Part shown: piece after piece, positions 10,187 through 61,186 of the stretch
How the letters are laid out: each line of letters begins with the position of its first letter
How positions within the stretch are numbered: position 1 is the first letter of the stretch
NCBI GenBank assembly: GCA_020059045.1
Contig: JAGVCW010000021.1
Coordinates: forward strand, 27,821-91,820
Direction: 5' to 3'
Origin: Minisyncoccota bacterium
Lineage (GTDB): Bacteria > Patescibacteriota > Minisyncoccia > Phycocordibacterales > Zambryskibacteraceae
DNA length: 64,000 nt
Position numbers and translations under genes: made by a program
Notes under the pieces: generated by a model
Databases searched by the model: none
Seen by the model: only the letters and a program-made list of their open reading frames with translations
What the model was told of the DNA's origin: nothing

Positions 10187-11155
10187 TTATACTGTATCAA
10201 GCACAGCTTGTATCTCTGCGGCCAGTGCATTGGCTTCAGCCGCGTCTCTACTCTCATTTTCCTCAAGTTGAGCAGAGTCAACTGGTACTTCTCCAGGCAG
10301 AAGTGCAAGTTCAGCAAGTCGCAAAGCACCCTCTCTACTCTCGGCTACGATTAGGTATCGGTTTTGGTGGCAAAACACGGCATCTCCTACCCCGGTGATT
10401 TCCTGAAGTTCAAGACCTCTCATACCTGCCCACTCTCTTGGTAACAAGCGAGGCGAAGTTGTATCAGTAGCTCTGTGCCAGCGTTTCACTGTCTGTACGA
10501 GCCAGCCGACCCTTTTGGGGTACACGACGAGGACTATTTCTGGGAAGTTTCTACTTACGTAGTGATCCCAACGGCATGAGTCATCAAGGAGTAAAACCTG
10601 TGGGCTTAAGTGCTTCTCTACAGCTCTCTTGACCACCTCTTCTCCTCGAATCTCTTCTTTTGCGCGGAAGATTGCACCACTTATGTTTGCTCGTGCAAAC
10701 GCAAGAGCAATATCCCAGTCACTTGGCTTAAATGTAGCTACTGCACTTGAAATGCTGTATGGCCGGATTTCACCAGCTTTGTATCTTACCAGAGTATACC
10801 TGTTGTCTGCCGCATCTATGGGTATAACCATGTGCCTCTCAATTTCTTCAGCTATCCGAGTGTCTTGAGCAATTCGCAGTCCGAAATGTTTCCATACAAG
10901 ACCGAAGGCAGCGTATGGAACACCATTTGCTCGTCTACCAGCACCTCCTTGCATATGGTGATCGAAGTCTAGAGTTTCTGGGTTGTACACTCCTCCTACA
11001 TCAATACGTACATTGCTTTCAGCTATTACTCTTGGATCGCGGCTACGCACCACAAGAGCTTCCATGTATTCCGGAAGCAATTGTAAGGCCGCGATCGCGT
11101 ACACCTCGTCTGCATGGATGGGTCCGTCGTGGGTCACAATTTGCACAGACAACAC
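10187..11155 (-). CDS. MYG1/UPF0160-family metal-dependent hydrolase-like protein
   Basis: VTHDGPIHADEVYA, VVRSRDP and IDVGGVYNPETLDFDHH match the family layout I recall (HxGxFHxDE .. DVGG..(Y/F)DHH). Confidence 0.7.
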   Translation of the reverse strand: MLSVQIVTHDGPIHADEVYAIAALQLLPEYMEALVVRSRDPRVIAESNVRIDVGGVYNPETLDFDHHMQGGAGRRANGVPYAAFGLVWKHFGLRIAQDTRIAEEIERHMVIPIDAADNRYTLVRYKAGEIRPYSISSAVATFKPSDWDIALAFARANISGAIFRAKEEIRGEEVVKRAVEKHLSPQVLLLDDSCRWDHYVSRNFPEIVLVVYPKRVGWLVQTVKRWHRATDTTSPRLLPREWAGMRGLELQEITGVGDAVFCHQNRYLIVAESREGALRLAELALLPGEVPVDSAQLEENESRDAAEANALAAEIQAVLDTV

Positions 11156-11369
11156 CTCAAAATGGGAGTGAAATGCTTCTATAACAAAGGGCAGTACAAA
11201 ATACAGAGTACATATTTTTAGAAAATAGTCAAGATTTGCTAGATTTGCAATAAGTCTATGAGTTTATGGGTATTAGTTATTTTCTCACAATATAAGTGCT
11301 TATTTACTCCCAAAATATGGCCTAAGATAGCCCTTTTTGGGGATTTATGTAATTTAAATCAAAAAGTTC

Positions 11370-11397
11370 TTGACAAATAAATTGTATATGTTATACT
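11370..11397 (+). promoter_or_regulatory. Sigma70-type promoter
   Basis: TTGACA (11370-11375), 16-nt spacer, TATACT (11392-11397). Confidence 0.6.
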
Positions 11398-11479
11398 ATA
11401 GGTAGTAGTAAGTAGTACATTTCAGTTGCAGTTCCCCGTTCAAGGTAGTCCACTCAGCACACCTTATGGAGGTATTACC

Positions 11480-12199
11480 ATGGCTAGCAAGAAGAAGCAG
11501 CAGGTAGCAACGAGCCCGGTTCCCAGCATGCAGGCCGCGGTTGCCACGATGGCGGAAGAGGCTCCCGCCGAGAGCAGGCAGTTCTCTTCGAGCCAGCCGA
11601 AGTGGTCCCCGACTCAGTTCATTGAGACCCTGGGGAAGATCAAGGAAGAACTCCCGGCCGCCGTGTCGAACTTCAAGATCGTGAAGAAGATCGTGGGTCT
11701 CGAGATGGACGGCAAGGATGAGATGGCCTTTCGGCAGATGATTCAGCTCGCCGGGGCCGTTGCTACCAAAGCATCCCAGAAGGCGGACGCGGAAGACCCA
11801 TCAAAGGTGTATCTGGATGCCAGGAAGGTCCAGGCTGCGCTCACCGCATGTGAGCGTGCCAATTCCAATCTGGCACGCACCTTCGACAGGTACATCGGGA
11901 ACTGGCGGAAGCGGGCTGACACCATGATGTCGAACGCAAGGCGCAAGGACCCGGACGTGATCGAGCGCGAGAGTGACACAATCGCGGACAACATGGAGGC
12001 ACTGGATGAGGCACTTGAAGGAAAGAAGCCTCGTCAAGAGGTCCTCGAGATCTACAACAGGACCTTCACCCATCTTCGCGAGCTCTCAAAGGAAGCAACG
12101 GCGCTTGCTACTGAAGCTTCGAGGAGAGAGCAGATCGAAACGATCGGCTCACTCGGGGACGACATCCTCGACTCTCTCGCGGAACTCGACAGCATCTAA
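11480..12199 (+). CDS. GC-rich helical orphan protein (239 aa)
   Basis: ATG at 11480 follows GGAGG. It has its own promoter and terminator. Hand counts give 42/60 and 38/60 G+C in two lines, far above the flanks. Confidence 0.6.
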   Translation: MASKKKQQVATSPVPSMQAAVATMAEEAPAESRQFSSSQPKWSPTQFIETLGKIKEELPAAVSNFKIVKKIVGLEMDGKDEMAFRQMIQLAGAVATKASQKADAEDPSKVYLDARKVQAALTACERANSNLARTFDRYIGNWRKRADTMMSNARRKDPDVIERESDTIADNMEALDEALEGKKPRQEVLEIYNRTFTHLRELSKEATALATEASRREQIETIGSLGDDILDSLAELDSI

Positions 12200-12217
12200 G
12201 TGCTGCGAGCAGTAGTA

Positions 12218-12254
12218 CCCCACGAAAAACCCCCAAGGTATCGTGGGGTTTTTC
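12218..12254 (+). terminator. Intrinsic terminator
   Basis: CCCCACGA / TCGTGGGG 8-bp stem followed by TTTTTC. Confidence 0.7.
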
Positions 12255-12472
12255 TTTTATTGCAATTGCGGAGAATACCATGACAGCTAGGCTGCATGGG
12301 ATGAATCCGCAAATACATACTATATGTCGGCGGAGCCGACTCCTCTTGCAACAAAGTTTGCCCTGATGCCTCGTCCTGCTACTCGCCGAGGCTTTGCGAG
12401 GGAATAGCTTACTGCGATTATAGGACGAGGCCAATTTTATTAAGATAATAATCTTTCCTGTATAATTTATAT

Positions 12473-13441
12473 ATGGAATACAAAACTATTATTTTGCCTA
12501 CTAGGCCTCAGGTGGATACTGTTATTTCTATATTCGTATTAAAGCACTTTGGTGAAAGTTTCTTCCCTGGTATTAAGACTGCTAGCTATGAGTTCATGTC
12601 CAACTTACCAGCTGGTGCGAGCGAAGAGAGCTTGGCAGAGGAAGGAAGGCTCCCAATAGATATTGGTGGTGGACGATTTGATCATCACAACAAAGAGGAG
12701 AAAACCACTGTTCTAAATCTTTTGACTAGCTTTCTTGCTCAAGGGAATAATCCTGCTTTAATAAAACTCAAGAAGTTTGTAGAAAGAGATGATTTTTATG
12801 GTAAAGGAATAATATCCTCTGACCCCCTTGATCGTGCTTTCGGTTTGCCCGGGCTTATTGCTTGTCTTAATAAAAAGTATTCAAGTAACCCAGCGAAAGT
12901 GCTGGATATAATTCTTCCAGTTGTTGATGCGTACTACGAAGAAGAAGAGAAGAGGGCAATAGGAATGCCTCTTGAACTTAAGGAGAAAATAGCAAATGGT
13001 AAAGCTAGAGTATTTAATACAGAGCAGAGAGGCAGAAAACTTAAATGCATTTTCATAGAAAGCGATAACATAAGTCTACCGGGTTTTCTTCGATCTAAGA
13101 TTGGAGGGGAGCACGATGTGATTGCAATAAGGCTATCGTCTGGACACACAAATATTCTTACGAGTCTCAAAAATACAGTTGATTTGCGTTCACTCGCAGT
13201 GCTTATTCGCTTACAAGAAGCCGAGGCGCGAGGTGTGAAGCTAGATGGAGTGCCGGAAGATTTAGCAGTACCGGGTAAAATCGATGAAGTACTTAATTGG
13301 TACTACGATACAGCTACTAACTCTTTACTAAATGGTGGTCCTAATCCAAGTGAGACCGACCCAACGGGAATAGCATCTTTCGAATTTGAAAAAATAATGG
13401 AAATAGGGCTCTCTGAGAAACTCTGGTCTCCATCACGATAA
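12473..13441 (+). CDS. Divergent UPF0160/MYG1-like paralog that has lost the N-terminal metal motif
   Basis: Keeps IDIGGGRFDHH. Where the other copy has THDGPIHADE, this one has LPTRPQVDTV. Composition is AT-rich (20/60 G+C in line 12481). Confidence 0.45.
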   Translation: MEYKTIILPTRPQVDTVISIFVLKHFGESFFPGIKTASYEFMSNLPAGASEESLAEEGRLPIDIGGGRFDHHNKEEKTTVLNLLTSFLAQGNNPALIKLKKFVERDDFYGKGIISSDPLDRAFGLPGLIACLNKKYSSNPAKVLDIILPVVDAYYEEEEKRAIGMPLELKEKIANGKARVFNTEQRGRKLKCIFIESDNISLPGFLRSKIGGEHDVIAIRLSSGHTNILTSLKNTVDLRSLAVLIRLQEAEARGVKLDGVPEDLAVPGKIDEVLNWYYDTATNSLLNGGPNPSETDPTGIASFEFEKIMEIGLSEKLWSPSR

Positions 13442-13486
13442 GCCAAATACCCTTTATATTAGCCACGTAATGGTCTATAAAAATCC

Positions 13487-13515
13487 TTGACTTTTATAGA
13501 CCATTATGCTATTAT
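13487..13515 (+). promoter_or_regulatory. Sigma70-type promoter
   Basis: TTGACT (13487-13492), 17-nt spacer, TATTAT (13510-13515). Confidence 0.55.
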
Positions 13516-13564
13516 TATACAAGAACAGCAGTTTCACACACCGACCCTTTCACAAGGAGTTTGC

Positions 13565-14155
13565 ATGGTAAAAAGCAAGGAAGTCGTCGACCCCGCATTT
13601 GTCGGAGAAGTGGAAGCGGCGCTCGTGTACCTCACGGTGCCCGGCAATCTGAAGTATCTTATACCCGGGTGGGTAAAAGAGGCGGACTTCTCGAATACTC
13701 CAAAGTCCGAGCGCCAGATGGCCCCACGATCCGATAAGTTGTTCCAAGTTGCACAAGCGAGGATGGATGGGGTGCTCGGGGATCTTGCCGGCGCTGGTTT
13801 CCTCCCCTCTGAAGTGTTTTATCTGAATCGGGATGGTGGCGCGCGGCGGGTTCGTATCACATGCAAGCGCTTTGGCGCACCGCTGACACTCGATCAGGTG
13901 CAGTCTCTCATTCCCCTCACTACCGAGCGGATATGGGATGTGATGGCTCATCGGACGGCTGCTACCAGGAACATTCCATGGGAGCACATTTCGATCAATG
14001 CCGGACGCCCCGATCATGCTCCAGAAGGGGGATTCGAAGCGGTTCGCGTGGTCGAAGGTCGAGTCTCGGTAGTTTCCCTTCTCAACACGGACGAGCTGCG
14101 GAAGGCGTCTGAGTCCATCATCGGCCTCCTCGAATCGCTGCAGATAACACGCTAA
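13565..14155 (+). CDS. GC-rich orphan protein (196 aa)
   Basis: ATG at 13565 follows AAGGAG, downstream of the 13487 promoter, and a terminator follows. The 13550..14182 minus-strand ORF is its mirror. Confidence 0.55.
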   Translation: MVKSKEVVDPAFVGEVEAALVYLTVPGNLKYLIPGWVKEADFSNTPKSERQMAPRSDKLFQVAQARMDGVLGDLAGAGFLPSEVFYLNRDGGARRVRITCKRFGAPLTLDQVQSLIPLTTERIWDVMAHRTAATRNIPWEHISINAGRPDHAPEGGFEAVRVVEGRVSVVSLLNTDELRKASESIIGLLESLQITR

Positions 14156-14219: not shown

Positions 14220-14246
14220 TTGACAACAAGTGTCTATTTCTATAAT
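14220..14246 (+). promoter_or_regulatory. Restart promoter for rpsS and the rest of the S10 operon
   Basis: TTGACA (14220-14225) and TATAAT (14241-14246) with a short 15-nt spacer. A GAAGCTC/GAGCTTT hairpin plus T-run follows in the leader. Confidence 0.5.
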
Positions 14247-15929: not shown

Positions 15930-16396
15930 TTGTTCTACTTGTTATAGTTGTTCTATATGTCAGAGAGATTTCAAGGATATAGGTTTGAAAAATTGGAAGT
16001 TTGGCAGGTGGGAATGCGTATAGTAAGTAAGGTATATTCAATTACGAAAAGGTTTCCTAAAGACGAGACCTACGCCCTGTCTGACCAGTTAAAAAGAGCA
16101 GCCACTTCGATAGTTTTAAACTTGGCAGAAGGCTCAGGACAGCCAACAAAAAAGTTATTCTCTCTTTATATTGAACGTGCCAAGTCCTCAACACTTGAAT
16201 GTGTGGCTTGTACAAAAATTGCTGTTCAGGAAAAACTTGTAGAACCTGATGAGGTTAAATCTTTGGAAGAGCTACTTGCGGAAGAGTATTTTAAACTTAT
16301 TGCGCTAGCAAAATCTATGAGGTAAGATCTTCCTACTCTAGCTTGTAACCTATCTAACACCTATAACAACTAGAACATATATAACACTTACAACCA
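15930..16396. repeat. Family-A hairpin element, copy A3, with an ORF inserted at its apex
   Basis: Left arm TGTTCTACTTGTTATAG pairs with right arm CTATAACAACTAGAACA. The apex ATGTCAGAG supplies ATG 15957 of the enclosed ORF. Confidence 0.65.
15948..16325 (+). CDS. Four-helix-bundle protein of the 23S rRNA intervening-sequence protein family
   Basis: YRFEKLEVWQ..FPKDETYALSDQLKRAATSIVLNLAEGSG..AKSSTLE matches the family pattern I recall. The start is TTG 15948 or ATG 15957. Confidence 0.75.
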   Translation: MFYMSERFQGYRFEKLEVWQVGMRIVSKVYSITKRFPKDETYALSDQLKRAATSIVLNLAEGSGQPTKKLFSLYIERAKSSTLECVACTKIAVQEKLVEPDEVKSLEELLAEEYFKLIALAKSMR

Positions 16397-18532: not shown

Positions 18533-19081
18533 ATGCAAAGCATAAAAGAAAAAACTCAAAAAACGTTTTCATCACTTAAGGCCACTCGTGGTTATAAAAA
18601 TCCCATGCAATCTCCACGTATTGTCAAAGTTGTTGTGAGTGTAGGAACGGGCTCATTTAAGGATGCGAAGAAAAAGGAACTTGCCCTGGATCGTCTTACG
18701 AAGATTACCGGCCAGCGCCCATCAGTACGCGGTGCAAAGCAGTCAATTGCCGCATTTAAAGTCCGACAGGGAGACCCGGTAGGACTTGCAGTCACACTTC
18801 GTGGCAAGAGAATGTACGATTTTCTAGATAAGTTAATCCATGTGGCCCTACCTCGTACCAAGGACTTCAGAGGAGTATCTTCTAAAGCTATTGATAAGAT
18901 GGGCAATTACACTCTAGGTATTAAGGAGCACACTATTTTCCCAGAGACAGCAGACGAGGAACTTAAAGACGTTTTTGGGCTAGCAATAACAATAGTTACG
19001 ACCGCAAGAACGAAGGAGGAGACCAAAGAATTTCTAGATTATCTAAGTTTCCCTTTCAAAAAAACAGAAGAGAAGAAGTAA
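18533..19081 (+). CDS. rplE: 50S ribosomal protein L5
   Basis: PRIVKVVVSVGTG.., then GNYTLGIKEHTIFPE. Confidence 0.95.
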   Translation: MQSIKEKTQKTFSSLKATRGYKNPMQSPRIVKVVVSVGTGSFKDAKKKELALDRLTKITGQRPSVRGAKQSIAAFKVRQGDPVGLAVTLRGKRMYDFLDKLIHVALPRTKDFRGVSSKAIDKMGNYTLGIKEHTIFPETADEELKDVFGLAITIVTTARTKEETKEFLDYLSFPFKKTEEKK

Positions 19082-19184: not shown

Positions 19185-19391
19185 ATGACAGAAGAATCAC
19201 TAAACTTAAACGAGACAAAGGAGAAGAGCGCGTTTTCCATGGGCGATCATTCAGATTTTATTGCAAGAGAGCTTGACCAAGTGAATAGGGAGTTACTCGA
19301 TGTAAGTTTAGACATACCAGATGGGGAGGTATCAGGTTTGGAAGAAGTGTATGATGCGATGATAAGGGATCTAAAAATCGAAAATAAATAA
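19185..19391 (+). CDS. Small acidic hypothetical protein
   Basis: 68-codon ATG ORF. No motif. Confidence 0.35.
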   Translation: MTEESLNLNETKEKSAFSMGDHSDFIARELDQVNRELLDVSLDIPDGEVSGLEEVYDAMIRDLKIENK

Positions 19392-19410: not shown

Positions 19411-19752
19411 ATGAACAAATTTTTATCTTTAGTAACGCGTATTCTGGGTGAGCTAGAATTTTCGCAAGAAAACAAAGAAAAAGTTGCATATGATCTCAAT
19501 CGCCTAATTATGACAAAGGTTGTCATAGCACTTCTTGATGAGGCCCCAGAGAATGTTCAAACTGAAGTTGAAAAACTTTTAAGTGCTGGTGAAACACTTG
19601 AAGTTGCAAATATCCTCAAGTCTACATTTACGACTGAAAGATTCGAAGAAGTAAGCCTTCATATTACTCGAGATGTGGTTCACAAATACTTAAGCGAATT
19701 GTTTGCAAAAACTCACAAGGAAAACAAAGAGAAACTTGTCGCTTCACTCTAA
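19411..19752 (+). CDS. Hypothetical helical protein
   Basis: 113-codon ATG ORF that ends at the hairpin shared with the convergent RNA gene. Confidence 0.4.
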   Translation: MNKFLSLVTRILGELEFSQENKEKVAYDLNRLIMTKVVIALLDEAPENVQTEVEKLLSAGETLEVANILKSTFTTERFEEVSLHITRDVVHKYLSELFAKTHKENKEKLVASL

Positions 19753-19780
19753 TATTTGTGCTGGGCTCTAATAGCACAGT

Positions 19781-20281
19781 ACTTTTGTATAAAAACAAAC
19801 CCGCTCCTTGGTGAGGGCGGGCGATAGTGGGAAGAAAACTTCCAATGGTTTGGAAACTGCATGAAACCGGGTACTTCCTCCCTTTGTCTAGTCAATGGCG
19901 ATTGGGCGCCTATGACATCCTCTTGGCTGTAAACCTCGTAACTCACCATGAGTTACGGCAGGCTAACGCCAACTAAGCTGAGGACTTCGACTGGGCTGTC
20001 TCTGCACGTGGTCCCGAATGAGACGCCTAGTGAGCGAATGACCCGAACGCAGACTACCCGGTTTCACACTTTGTAATGAACTTATATCTTGCACTCTCTT
20101 TCGAGAGATGATTTCGTACCCTGGGGCGGCGAGCGGGCCGAAGCGCCGTCACGACCCCAGGGACTTCCTCGATATTTAACCTCTGATGCCGAGTACCGCA
20201 TCGGAGGCGATCCCCGTTAGGACGTAAGCGAATGCACCGGTTTAGGGCACATCACTGTATCCGAGCCCGCATGGGGGAGCT
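19781..20281 (-). ncRNA. Roughly 500-nt GC-rich structured RNA with RNase P RNA-like motifs; identity unresolved
   Basis: About 640 bp hold no ORF apart from one 66-aa shadow. Consensus promoter upstream; terminator CCCGC..GCGGG plus UUUGUUUUU at 19781-19811. GAAA-capped hairpin, 8-bp hairpin at 19928-19946, 12-bp long-range helix, and GAGGAAGUCC and ACCCGGUUUCA motifs. Confidence 0.6.
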
Positions 20282-20286
20282 TGTGA

Positions 20287-20314
20287 GCTTATGTATATTA
20301 TAGCATGTACACGT
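20287..20314 (-). promoter_or_regulatory. Consensus sigma70 promoter of the structured RNA
   Basis: The minus strand reads TTGACA (20314-20309), a 16-nt spacer, then TATAAT (20292-20287). Confidence 0.7.
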
Positions 20315-20592
20315 TATTTGTCAAGGAGTTTCTCATTATCTTTTCTGTGACACATGAAATATGGCTAAAACTAAGGCTTATTTGAATATCACTTTAAAGT
20401 AGAGGGAAATTTGTTGGCAAGTTCTTGAAATTATCCGCTTAACCCTTATTTTATTGACTTTATACGGCTCAATTGCTAAGCTGTTGCAAAGCTTTTGGAA
20501 GCTTTTTTCTTTACTTAATCGCTTCATTCGTCAATATTCTTCCTTTTGAGGGCTTTCGCTCATGCGAGGTCGCTAGAGGATAAACAATATTT

Positions 20593-20778
20593 GTGGCCAA
20601 GAAATCAGTTATAGCAAGATCAGTTAAAAAGCCTAAATTCTCGACTCGCATCGTGAGGCGTTGTTTCCGTTGTGGTCGAAAGCGTGGCTATATGCAAGAT
20701 TTTGATCTATGTAGAATATGTTTTCGCGAATTTGCAAATGAAGGCAAAATCCCGGGCGTTAAGAAATCAAGTTGGTAA
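20593..20778 (+). CDS. rpsN: 30S ribosomal protein S14, zinc-ribbon type Z
   Basis: 61 aa with a GTG start. [17 protein letters not shown] carries two CxxC pairs. Confidence 0.93.
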
Positions 20779-29110: not shown

Positions 29111-29128
29111 CCCCATCAGGAGGAGTAA

Positions 29129-29151
29129 ACCCCACCTGTTGGGGTTTTTTT
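29129..29151 (+). terminator. Intrinsic terminator
   Basis: ACCCCA / TGGGGT stem followed by a T7 run. Confidence 0.7.
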
Positions 29152-29189
29152 ATTTTAGAGACGTACAACTTAAGCGATAAGACCATTAA

Positions 29190-29214
29190 ATGTTAAACAC
29201 CGAGTGTTTAACAT
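29190..29214. repeat. 25-nt perfect palindrome boundary repeat, right copy
   Basis: ATGTTAAACACCGAGTGTTTAACAT, with 11-bp arms. Confidence 0.8.
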
Positions 29215-29317
29215 ACTACATAAGCTGCATGGTCGGTAAAGCTTTTCATAATGAGGTTTTTGTTTCCTACTGTGCTCTTCACACTTTCCTTATATTGTGT
29301 GAGTAATATAATGTATG

Positions 29318-29494
29318 AGGGTTATTTGGCATATTATCTAGATTAAAGTAATTTTAAAGGGAGTCCTATATTTCCTCACTTTAATGAAGCCTTCGGGCAT
29401 CTGACAAGTGAGGTTGCGGACACCCACCTGGCAAATAGCTAGGGCAATATGTCCAAGTAACCCACACAAAGAACCCCGTATACGGGATTTTTTG
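29318..29494 (+). ncRNA. Candidate small RNA of about 175 nt, unclassified
   Basis: TATAAT at 29306-29311. 8-bp stem CCTCACTT/AAGTGAGG (29374-29413) encloses a GCC-UUCG-GGC hairpin. Terminator CCCG-TATA-CGGG plus T-run lies at 29475-29494. Confidence 0.3.
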
Positions 29495-29542
29495 TTTACA
29501 TGACTAAATTTTAAAACAAACAGGTTATAATATTCGTAATAA

Positions 29543-41131: not shown

Positions 41132-41243
41132 GTCTCTATCATAGAGCAAAAGCACCCTGAGGGTGTTTTTGCTATTTCGCTCCCAGGTGGTTTACCACGA
41201 GCGAGCCTTCGACCTGGCTCAGGCCAGGGCGAAGCGAGTCGAG

Positions 41244-41678
41244 TGGAGATGGGCGGAATCGAACCGCCGTGCAATAGAAGAGATGAAAGATTTCTACAAG
41301 AGGTAGTTTGTTTCAATCTGCCTGTTGGCAGATATTTAGACTCTGTAAGTATGGAACAAACAAAATCTTACAAAGTCGAGCTTCTACATTTCGGAAACAA
41401 GCAAAGCAATTTGTTTCCAGAGTCTCAAGTTATTACGCGAGCAACTTGTTATGAGACATCACAAGTGCTAACGTCGCTTAGGCCGACCCAGACACCGAAG
41501 TGTCGGGTTAAGAGGCGTAAACGAAAGCGAAATCCTTAGCTCCAAAATATGGAGAAACTAGAGACCCAGCTTTTGCGACAATGCTGTTTGCAATTATCGG
41601 TTGTGGCGGATTTAAGAGTCACCACAGCTCTCCCTTGCATCTATCAAATGAATTCTACTGTCTAGGCCGATCATCCCC
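41244..41678 (-). ncRNA. ssrA: tmRNA
   Basis: 5' GGGGAUGAUCGGCCUAGACAG and 3' GGCGGUUCGAUUCCGCCCAUCUCCA. The acceptor stem GGGGAUG/CAUCUCC has the G3:U identity pair. smpB lies 350 nt away. Confidence 0.85.
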
Positions 41679-41746: not shown

Positions 41747-42019
41747 CTAATTGTTACGCCCTATTTTGTCTAAATATTTCTTTAGTATTTTCTTTTTTTC
41801 TCTTGCTGACCACAATGTCTTAAGAAAACGCTCCCTTTGGAATGCATCTGACTTGTCTAAGTATTTTTCTTGGTGAATAACAACAAGAGGTCTGCGCGAT
41901 CTAGTAGAAAGTACTTTTCCACTATTGTGCGCTTGAATTCTTTTTTGTATATTCTTCGTGCATCCAACATAGAGCCCACTGTCTTTGGTACTAAGCAATA
42001 TGTATACAAAATAGTGCAT
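41747..42019 (-). CDS. GIY-YIG nuclease-superfamily small protein
   Basis: YFVYILLSTKDSGLYVGCTKNIQKRIQAHN is the GIY..YVG..R..H pattern. Confidence 0.75.
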   Translation of the reverse strand: MHYFVYILLSTKDSGLYVGCTKNIQKRIQAHNSGKVLSTRSRRPLVVIHQEKYLDKSDAFQRERFLKTLWSAREKKKILKKYLDKIGRNN

Positions 42020-42023
42020 AAGC

Positions 42024-42467
42024 CTATTTATATTTCAAAGTTCTTCTCATCTCTCTCTCGGTCTCTCTTTTCTTTATACTCTGACGTTTGTCCCGTGTTT
42101 TCTTACCACGGGCTATGCCGATTGCTACCTTGATTTTTCTTCCTTTATTATACACCGAAAGTGGTACTACTGTCAAACCTCTTTGCCTCTCAGAATCCAT
42201 AATAGTTTTAATCTCAGCTTTGGTTAGCAGGAGCTTGCGGTTTCTTCTCGAATCATAACCTTTTGGGGTGTTCGCAGCCTGATAGGGAGGAATATCTGAG
42301 CCCACGAGGAATGCTTCATTACCTCGTGCGATTACGTGCGATCCGTCGAGTGACCCACGTTTCATGCGCAAAGCTTTAACTTCAAATCCAAGCAGCTCTA
42401 TACCCGCCTCGATTTTCTCGAGTATTTCGTAGTTAAACCCTACCTTTTTGTTCTCAACTAGTGACAT
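42024..42467 (-). CDS. smpB: SsrA-binding protein
   Basis: NKKVGFNYEILEKIEAGIELLGFEVKALR core. Confidence 0.93.
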   Translation of the reverse strand: MSLVENKKVGFNYEILEKIEAGIELLGFEVKALRMKRGSLDGSHVIARGNEAFLVGSDIPPYQAANTPKGYDSRRNRKLLLTKAEIKTIMDSERQRGLTVVPLSVYNKGRKIKVAIGIARGKKTRDKRQSIKKRETEREMRRTLKYK

Positions 42468-48739: not shown

Positions 48740-48802
48740 AATTTCTTTCTAATTAATAATTTGAAACTACGTTTAGTATATCAAGTTATGCAAGAATATT
48801 TG

Positions 48803-48876
48803 TCCACCCTCCACGATTTGAACGTGGGACCCTCGAGGTATAAGCTCGATGCTCTAACCAACTGAGCTAAGGGTGG
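48803..48876 (-). tRNA. tRNA-Ile with a genomically encoded UAU anticodon
   Basis: Hand-folded cloverleaf: CCACCCT ta GCTC agttggtta GAGC a TCGAG CTTATAC CTCGA gggtc CCACG ttcaaat CGTGG AGGGTGG a. No CCA is encoded. Confidence 0.8.
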
Positions 48877-61079: not shown

Positions 61080-61106
61080 GTTCAAAGTTGCCAATCTGGC
61101 GGAGAG
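61080..61106. repeat. 27-bp att-like core, copy 1 (tRNA-Ser 3' end plus 17 nt of downstream flank)
   Basis: GTTCAAAGTTGCCAATCTGGCGGAGAG is identical to 62654-62680. Confidence 0.9.
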
Positions 61107-61186
61107 AGTGGGATTCGAACCCACGGTTCCGGTAAAGGAACGACGGTTTAGTAAACCGTTGATTTAAACCACTCATCCATCTCTCC
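61097..61186 (-). tRNA. Class II tRNA (Ser-type long variable arm); anticodon loop UUACUAA reads ACU
   Basis: GGAGAGA tg GAT gagtggtttaa ATC a ACGGT TTACTAA ACCGT, variable arm cGTTCCtttaccGGAACc, GTGGG ttcgaat CCCAC TCTCTCC g CCA. Confidence 0.8.

Follow-up and report, generated by a model that had tools for sequence, protein, structure and literature searches.

A candidate orphan, large structured RNA gene between rplE and rpsN of a Minisyncoccota bacterium

The window analysed here is a 64,000-nucleotide (nt) stretch of contig JAGVCW010000021.1 from a Minisyncoccota bacterium, and our subject is the minus strand between rplE and rpsN, in the ribosomal protein cluster. We conclude with good confidence that a genuine gene lies on this strand, transcribed independently and encoding a structured non-coding RNA of ~500 nt. 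As to its identity, we lean towards a large, structured orphan RNA, non-coding and specific to the lineage, whose gene is self-contained and which is not detectably a member of any described family.

The original prediction described a GC-rich, helix-filled RNA gene of ~500 nt with promoter and terminator signals on the minus strand. This description is borne out by the promoter scan and by folding (z -5.1). The features that it listed exist, but most of its positions are ~10 nt off. The transcript runs from ~20290 to 19791, not from 20281 to 19781; the promoter, correctly read as TTGACA-16-TATAAT, occupies 20324-20297 and not 20314-20287; and the terminator, which had been put at 19790-19811, lies at 19821-19791 including its U-tract. 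The gap is indeed devoid of a credible open reading frame (ORF), although it measures 840 bp and not 640 bp. The RNA had also been placed 'antisense inside the spc operon'; its orientation is as claimed, but it overlaps no gene. Two identities had been offered, an undescribed large RNA, which fits the evidence, and a strongly remodelled RNase P RNA, which found no support in the membership tests that were run.

Transcription unit and predicted fold

The promoter scan gives the minus-strand promoter a 12/12 match to the sigma-70 consensus, with the TG of an extended -10 element present. Perfect TTGACA-N15-19-TATAAT sites number three in the 64 kb, against 0.07 expected (an enrichment of ~40-fold), and since the remaining two stand before rpsS and before a unit consisting of an ORF and the tmRNA, this genome apparently employs the consensus for strongly expressed units. 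The terminator follows ~500 nt downstream in the matching orientation and reads CCCGCCCU-CACCA-AGG(A)GCGGG, then UUUGUUUUU; its energy of -14.4 kcal/mol (z -3.5) comes from a separate folding. It was missing from the list of the simple terminator scan. Along the transcript the GC content is 0.53-0.575, compared to 0.335-0.435 in the flanking 200-nt windows and 42% in the whole window, and the rise starts near the predicted start and drops at the terminator. Elevated GC is a known trait of stable RNAs in A+T-rich genomes. The 64-kb window contains no further large non-coding GC-rich island.

The genome is otherwise compact. The ORF-free stretch (19753-20592) has a plus-strand terminator-like site at 19756-19779, and its right-hand part contains the promoter and leader of rpsN. 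Within the RNA, the longest ORF with a start codon would encode 66 amino acids (aa), and its AUG sits in a hairpin loop. The concatenated stop-free frames of at least 35 aa, taken from all six frames, match nothing at E<=10 among 5.8 billion proteins, a search meant also to reveal homologous RNAs over which spurious ORFs had been called.

The structure of the RNA is a thermodynamic prediction throughout. The whole molecule folds with -196.4 kcal/mol, against -162.9 +/- 6.6 kcal/mol for dinucleotide shuffles (z -5.1); the corresponding z is -3.45 for the antisense strand and -6.8 for the tmRNA of the same window. According to the partition function, most of the molecule lies in helices with a pair probability (P) of at least 0.9. 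The predicted layout has four hairpins in a row at the 5' end, then an A/U-rich linker of 24 nt, then a 3' domain of ~210 nt, in which a 15-bp long-range helix would close three arms (Table 1). When folded alone, the 3' domain (219 nt) gives -88.4 kcal/mol, z -5.0.

Several of these elements had been recognised before. The P3-like hairpin CCUCCGAUGC..GCAUCAGAGG is present, at 20208-20179. The CUCUC-GAAA-GAGAG hairpin and the pairing of CCCUGGGG with CCCCAGGG are present too, at positions other than those claimed (20107-20094 and 20162-20119, respectively). A hairpin described as 8 bp at 19928-19946 is really one of 9 bp at 19957-19937, and the long-range helix described as 12 bp has 15 (20069-20055 with 19873-19859). 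All three of the quoted motifs and all three copies of GAAGU(C/A)C occur in the sequence. The motif GAGGAAGUCC, which had been likened to conserved region I (CR-I) of RNase P RNA, has a kindred copy, GAGGAAGUACC, at 19880-19870 (repeat family D2). An internal module duplication was considered on account of GAGGAAGU and CAUUCGCU, each of which occurs twice, and was rejected, as an alignment of the RNA halves scored at the shuffle mean.

Table 1. Predicted elements of the RNA gene, from its 5' end to its 3' end, and features of the surrounding spacer (window coordinates; P, pair probability)
Feature	Position	Strand	Remarks
Promoter	20297..20324	-	-35 TTGACA 20324-20319; 16-nt spacer ending in TG; -10 TATAAT 20302-20297
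Predicted transcript	19791..20290	-	~500 nt; GC ~0.55; no credible ORF; start predicted near 20290
Hairpin H1	20220..20262	-	RNA positions 31-73; least certain helix, P 0.57-0.65
Hairpin H2, GCCUCCGAUGC..GCAUCAGAGGU (CCUCCGAUGC..GCAUCAGAGG)	20179..20208	-	-16.3 kcal/mol, z -4.0, P 0.87-0.99
CR-I-like motif GAGGAAGUCC	20161..20170	-	one A fewer than CR-I; 3' end runs into H3
Hairpin H3, CCCUGGGGU..GCCCCAGGG	20119..20162	-	outer strands CCCUGGGG/CCCCAGGG at 20162-20155 and 20126-20119; encloses GUGACGG/CCG.UCGC and a UUCG-containing loop; -33.3 kcal/mol, z -4.45, P>=0.94
Hairpin H4, CUCUC-GAAA-GAGAG	20094..20107	-	GNRA tetraloop; P>=0.92
A/U-rich linker UGCAAGAUAUAAGUUCAUUACAAA	20070..20093	-	unpaired in minimum-free-energy and centroid structures; connects 5' hairpins with 3' domain
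15-bp long-range helix, 5' strand GUGUGAAACCGGGUA	20055..20069	-	contains L15-like motif; inverted repeat I7, 12/12; P>=0.95
3' domain interior	19874..20054	-	short stem 20042-20040 with 19888-19886; three arms
Arms of 3' domain	20038-19986; 19985-19917; 19916-19891	-	tip of second arm is the 9-bp hairpin 19957-19937
15-bp long-range helix, 3' strand UACCCGGUUUCAUGC	19859..19873	-	contains CR-V-like motif; P>=0.95
Hairpin H6, UUUCCAA-ACCA-UUGGAAG	19839..19856	-	between 3' domain and terminator; P ~0.5
Intrinsic terminator	19791..19821	-	8-pair stem with one bulged A and 5-nt loop (19821-19800), then UUUGUUUUU (19799-19791)
orf68	19185-19391	+	no detectable relatives; converges on RNA gene
orf113	19411-19752	+	rare ~120-aa helical protein family; converges on RNA gene
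rpsN (S14) promoter and leader hairpin	~20454..20513	+	divergent from RNA promoter; right edge of insertion; coordinates approximate, by eye

Comparison with RNase P RNA and other RNA families

At gathering thresholds, Rfam 15 (4227 models, including RNaseP_bact_a, bact_b, arch, nuc and type T) reports only a tmRNA and two tRNAs in the whole window, and no Rfam family matches the RNA region at E<=10 beyond noise. A covariance-model scan for class A and class B RNase P RNA and other large RNAs, named in the original prediction as a check, thus returned no match. At E<=10, RNase P models of every type stayed without a match, whether run on 901 nt or 493 nt around the RNA or on the whole 64-kb window. 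The positive control, E. coli rnpB run with the same tool and settings, scored 318.6 bits (the RF00010 gathering score is 100), and since the control run lists matches as low as 10-14 bits on 1.2 kb, an RNase P alignment above ~12-15 bits would have shown.

The RNA has some features in common with RNase P RNA (RF00010, RF00011), among whose members are diverged forms from the Candidate Phyla Radiation (CPR; PMC8172020). Both are stand-alone stable-RNA genes of several hundred nt, GC-enriched in an A+T-rich genome; the orphan RNA has a hairpin and then a GAGGAA(A)GUCC-like motif, an 18-mer that is like the E. coli L15 region, and a multi-arm domain closed by a long-range helix. It differs in that it has no covariance-model match, no P2, no specificity (S) domain and no CR-II to CR-IV; its CR-I-like motif is without one A, the P4 partner strand is occupied by the 15-bp helix, hairpins are found where RNase P RNA has none, and the gene sits in a lineage-specific insertion.

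The motif GAGGAAGUCC (20170-20161) is one A short of CR-I GAGGAAAGUCC, whose three A's we take to be conserved in the RNase P RNA family. One 15-bp helix (P>=0.95) is made up of the L15-like GAAACCGGGUAG on one strand and the CR-V-like UACCCGGUUUC on the other; being mutually paired, they are unable to act as L15 and CR-V. The proposed P4, AAG(U)CC/GGUUU, can be drawn with six pairs and a bulged U (RNA positions 126-132 with 425-430), but its 3' strand sits in the 15-bp helix, and enforcing the pairing changes the free energy from -195.7 to -175.3 kcal/mol in constrained folding, a cost of ~20 kcal/mol. The hairpin at 19856-19839 separates this would-be P4 3' strand from the sole P1-like pairing. 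Upstream of the CR-V-like motif, inspection revealed no P2 partner, in the sense of a sequence complementary to the segment that precedes the P3-like hairpin on its 5' side. The expected place of the specificity domain (P7-P12, CR-II, CR-III) holds only ~60 nt, in two simple hairpins and with no partial model match, and neither CR-II, CR-III nor CR-IV was found in the RNA.

Comparison with E. coli M1 RNA itself gave a best alignment of 16/18 to the P16/L15/P15 strand (E. coli 284-301), including GGGUA; in RNase P RNA the GGU motif of the L15 loop binds the 3' CCA of tRNA and is optional in CPR bacteria. This score is reached by ~1% of shuffles and equalled by the reversed candidate, and the strand pairs differently in the favoured fold. 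Long-gap alignment with M1 RNA added no collinear blocks, a covariance model of the 3' domain found nothing in the E. coli rnpB locus, and no rnpA-like RNR motif occurs within the 64-kb window. With no Rfam match despite a working control, mismatched motifs, chance-level similarity to M1 RNA and an unfavourable constrained fold, we regard an assignment to RNase P RNA as unsupported.

Models of tmRNA, 6S, signal recognition particle (SRP), OLE, GOLLD, ROOL, raiA, HEARO and group I/II intron RNAs likewise give no match at the RNA region (E<=10). The orphan RNA shares with OLE, GOLLD, ROOL, raiA and HEARO (omega RNA) a similar order of size, a multi-domain fold and GNRA-capped hairpins. Those classes, however, are defined by many covarying representatives, whereas the orphan RNA is a single sequence, and it has no phage, tRNA-cluster or IscB/TnpB neighbourhood. 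The GC/intergenic-region surveys of the Breaker laboratory reportedly flag long, GC-rich, ORF-free intergenic regions like the present one.

Patescibacteria carry many group I introns in tRNA and rRNA genes, some of them missed by standard annotation (PMC13011429). In the orphan RNA, AAGAUAUAAGUUC resembles the S element of such introns when read by eye, but the order of the R-like and S-like elements is wrong for a group I intron, and the RNA has its own promoter and terminator. RF00028 has no match at E<=10 at the RNA region, and no tRNA or rRNA exon halves were found at the RNA ends by ARAGORN, Rfam or sequence inspection. A tRNA with a group I intron and a free-standing or permuted group I intron were rejected for the want of exon halves and of an RF00028 match and for the wrong order of elements.

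We note some features of the other RNAs in the window. The tmRNA (41241-41678, minus strand; 101.5 bits) is long, at 438 nt, and a perfect TTGACA-18-TATAAT lies ~470 nt upstream of it (42147-42176, minus strand), with a 90-aa ORF (41747-42019) between. A tRNA-Ser (61097-61186, minus strand) has the anticodon ACU, and A34 is unusual in bacteria outside tRNA-Arg ACG; a tRNA-Ile (48802-48876, minus strand) has the anticodon UAU. A sub-threshold 6S RNA match at 29311-29470 on the plus strand (26.4 bits compared to a gathering score of 46.4, E=0.22) lies inside a 432-nt ORF-free gap (29111-29542) and may be the 6S RNA of this genome.

Genomic setting and searches for relatives

The host belongs to the Paceibacteria/Parcubacteria (CPR). 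Its L5 finds its best matches in Zambryskibacteria-like metagenome-assembled genomes, yet even the nearest of 5.8 billion protein clusters reaches only 79% identity. The spacer from rplE (18533-19081) to rpsN (20593-20778) is 1512 bp long and contains orf68 and orf113 on the plus strand, then the RNA gene on the minus strand. Conservation was assessed in 80 species-representative loci around L5, 69 of which carry S14 too. The L5-S14 gap is 2-200 bp in 58 of these 69 and 214-5759 bp in 10, and in the remaining locus the two genes overlap by 9 bp. With nhmmer, no sequence similar to the RNA was found among the 80 related L5 loci or in the six loci of the closest relatives; the original prediction had counted a lack of conservation in relatives, together with a canonical rnpB elsewhere, as an argument against function. 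Where the longer L5-S14 spacers of relatives were read, they contain other sequence, and in the two relatives nearest by L5 (79% and 78% identity) the rplE-rpsH region is compact and leaves space for rpsN only. Since the L5-S14 regions of relatives are without it, we place the RNA gene in a lineage-specific insertion of ~1.4 kb that extends from rplE to the rpsN promoter.

Searches beyond the relatives were equally negative. No homolog was found by blastn ('distant') against phages and plasmids, by five exact DNA patterns in viral contigs (one pattern gave chance matches only), by a pseudo-protein of the stop-free frames of the RNA, scanned as six degenerate 24-nt patterns at a time against viral and metagenome contigs, or by the covariance model of the 3' domain over ~1.85 Mb of loci. 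A helix-pair pattern also found no homolog in metagenome contigs; it was a poor choice because it is self-complementary, and more than 120 unrelated arrays of the palindrome GAAACCGGGTTTC swamped the scan. Numerous close relatives of the RNA are ruled out in the collections reached. The palindrome itself (GAAACCGGGTTTC / GAAACCCGGTTTC) forms dense short-repeat arrays on many unrelated metagenome contigs (L091-L210), some within longer GGGGAAACCGGGTTTCCCC units; these arrays resemble repetitive extragenic palindromes and are unrelated to the orphan RNA.

Of the neighbouring genes, orf113 has a close match only to itself and three remote homologs of 120-126 aa (P0122, P0124 and P0126; E 1e-5 to 7e-4). 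In CPR-like contigs, each homolog is preceded by another small ORF. A search of orf113-family loci with nhmmer found no large RNA beside the homologs, from which it follows that the RNA is not a fixed partner of orf113. On the other side of the RNA gene, the arrangement of rpsN promoter and leader recurs in relatives, and because rpsN carries its own promoter, the spc operon is split after rplE. In this clade, the spacers of four loci (L008, L013, L018 and L023) have a promoter of the form TTGAC[A/T]..TGCTAAG[A/C]T and a leader hairpin, AAGCUU-loop-AAGCUUUUUU, directly upstream of rpsN; the hairpin could be a conserved attenuator or autoregulatory leader.

Two further insertions in the ribosomal protein cluster (10187-14155 and 15948-16325) have no counterpart in relatives, and with them a horizontal origin of the RNA gene stays plausible. 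The first is a block of ~4 kb between rplB and rpsS, not found in the relatives L085-L090, and it contains four genes. The one on the minus strand encodes a MYG1/UPF0160 exonuclease; the other three are ORFs that match no Pfam family, and two of these have 55-58% GC. Directly after this block, a perfect TTGACA-15-TATAAT promoter at 14220-14246 restarts the rpsS operon. The second, on the plus strand between rpsC and rplP, is a gene for a 125-aa 23S_rRNA_IVP / bAvd-like four-helix protein, and relatives have none there. The window encodes no reverse transcriptase, transposase, integrase, TnpB, IscB, Cas or defence genes, so that no partner protein of these kinds can be assigned to the RNA, and the surrounding genes are ordinary housekeeping genes.

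Possible roles, alternative explanations and significance

We suggest that the RNA would be made abundantly and constitutively and that it would act in trans as a folded molecule, as a protein-binding scaffold or, less likely, as a ribozyme. It would not be expected to work through antisense pairing, which is disfavoured because no gene overlaps the RNA and no stretch of 13 nt or longer elsewhere in the window is complementary to it; short repeats that it has in common with orf68 and orf113 are at chance level, and a role in target pairing was rejected. The RNA was probably acquired or invented recently in the lineage, in which case it is probably accessory rather than essential.

Some considerations weigh against an orphan RNA gene of this kind. 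The transcript is a prediction from DNA signals, GC-rich segments can give inflated fold z-scores, and a single sequence offers neither covariation nor evidence of purifying selection on the structure. Distant homologs may exist, since exact-pattern scans cannot find them. That neither the relatives nor any collection searched contain the RNA would likewise suit a foreign fragment of recent acquisition, possibly in decay. When a tiny genome has a stable RNA of 400-500 nt with no assignment, this is a priori often the RNase P RNA, and some CPR bacteria have RNase P RNAs that escape the Rfam thresholds, as reported in the study discussed below.

If the RNA were the RNase P RNA of this organism, remodelled beyond covariance-model detection, it would have to combine the P3-like hairpin, a CR-I minus one A, a six-pair P4 with a bulged U, formed with GGUUUC near the 3' end, a hairpin stub that replaces the specificity domain, and a large novel insertion at P18. 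Its size, GC enrichment and strong promoter do resemble those of a housekeeping stable RNA, and no RNase P RNA was detected elsewhere within the 64-kb window. GAGGAAGUCC comes after a hairpin and an A/U-rich linker, just as CR-I comes after P3; the 16/18 match to the E. coli P16/L15/P15 strand includes the GGU motif, and a local P15/L15/P16-like fold can be drawn by eye for RNA positions 201-244. Among 35 complete CPR genomes, default Rfam thresholds failed to detect the RNase P RNA of 10; these RNAs, which often have helices missing, were recovered only by lowering the RF00010 threshold to 5 bits (Lui et al., PMC8172020). Set against this, 493-901 nt yielded no covariance-model match at E<=10 where matches of 10-15 bits get listed. 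The CR-I-like motif is incomplete, the L15-like and CR-V-like strands pair mutually, P4 is costly, a hairpin intervenes between its 3' strand and P1, and neither a P2 partner nor CR-II, CR-III or CR-IV was found. The reversed control aligns with M1 RNA as well as the RNA does, and the 3'-domain model finds nothing at the E. coli rnpB locus. An essential and ancient gene such as rnpB would not be expected in an insertion that is missing from relatives, as this gene is. We keep a slim probability for a remodelled RNase P RNA because some CPR forms evade default thresholds and because of the a priori expectation. Slimmer again is the chance that this is the bacterium's only RNase P RNA, without a canonical specificity domain and P2, with a shortened CR-I and a new domain of ~170 nt, and invisible to covariance models.

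The RNA could also be cargo of an element that is mobile or was acquired horizontally, or what is left of one: an RNA encoded by such an element, for example, a piece of an intron or a degenerate ribozyme, which landed in the rplE-rpsN spacer and is transcribed without a host role. This is unlikely too, yet it deserves more weight than the RNase P interpretation. In its favour are the three lineage-specific insertions in the ribosomal protein cluster, one of which has ORFs of 55-58% GC, close to the 55% of the RNA, and the absence of the RNA from all relatives examined. The window, however, has no integrase, transposase, reverse transcriptase, TnpB, IscB or Cas gene, terminal repeats and target duplications are not above chance, and there is no match in phage, plasmid or viral collections or to a group I/II intron model. 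The promoter is of host-consensus quality, and the GC island stops at the transcript boundaries, neither of which suits cargo. It is rather improbable that the region is a non-functional GC-rich leftover, such as a decayed gene, with a promoter and a terminator beside it by chance. That the RNA is known from one unconserved instance would be consistent with this, and termination of the convergent orf113 could be a further use of the terminator region, where the plus strand has a terminator-like site of its own. A perfect extended -10 promoter is, however, improbable by chance (0.07 per window) and faces a terminator at a sensible distance; a former protein is not traceable in any frame, the sense strand folds more strongly than the antisense strand, and the genome is compact elsewhere. 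We therefore continue to prefer, with the reservations given above, a lineage-specific gene for an orphan structured RNA.

Large, highly structured bacterial RNAs are rare, and RNase P, tmRNA, OLE, ROOL and GOLLD each turned out to do something unusual. The genomes of CPR/Patescibacteria are minimal, so that keeping 500 nt of non-coding sequence behind a good promoter probably comes at a cost. As it stands, the RNA is known from one instance and is not conserved; it is a clean candidate, of the type that GC-rich intergenic surveys look for, and not yet a discovery. Were it RNase P RNA after all, the minimal bacterial enzyme would be redefined. If homologs with covarying helices exist, the RNA would represent a new class of large non-coding RNA from a poorly understood phylum.

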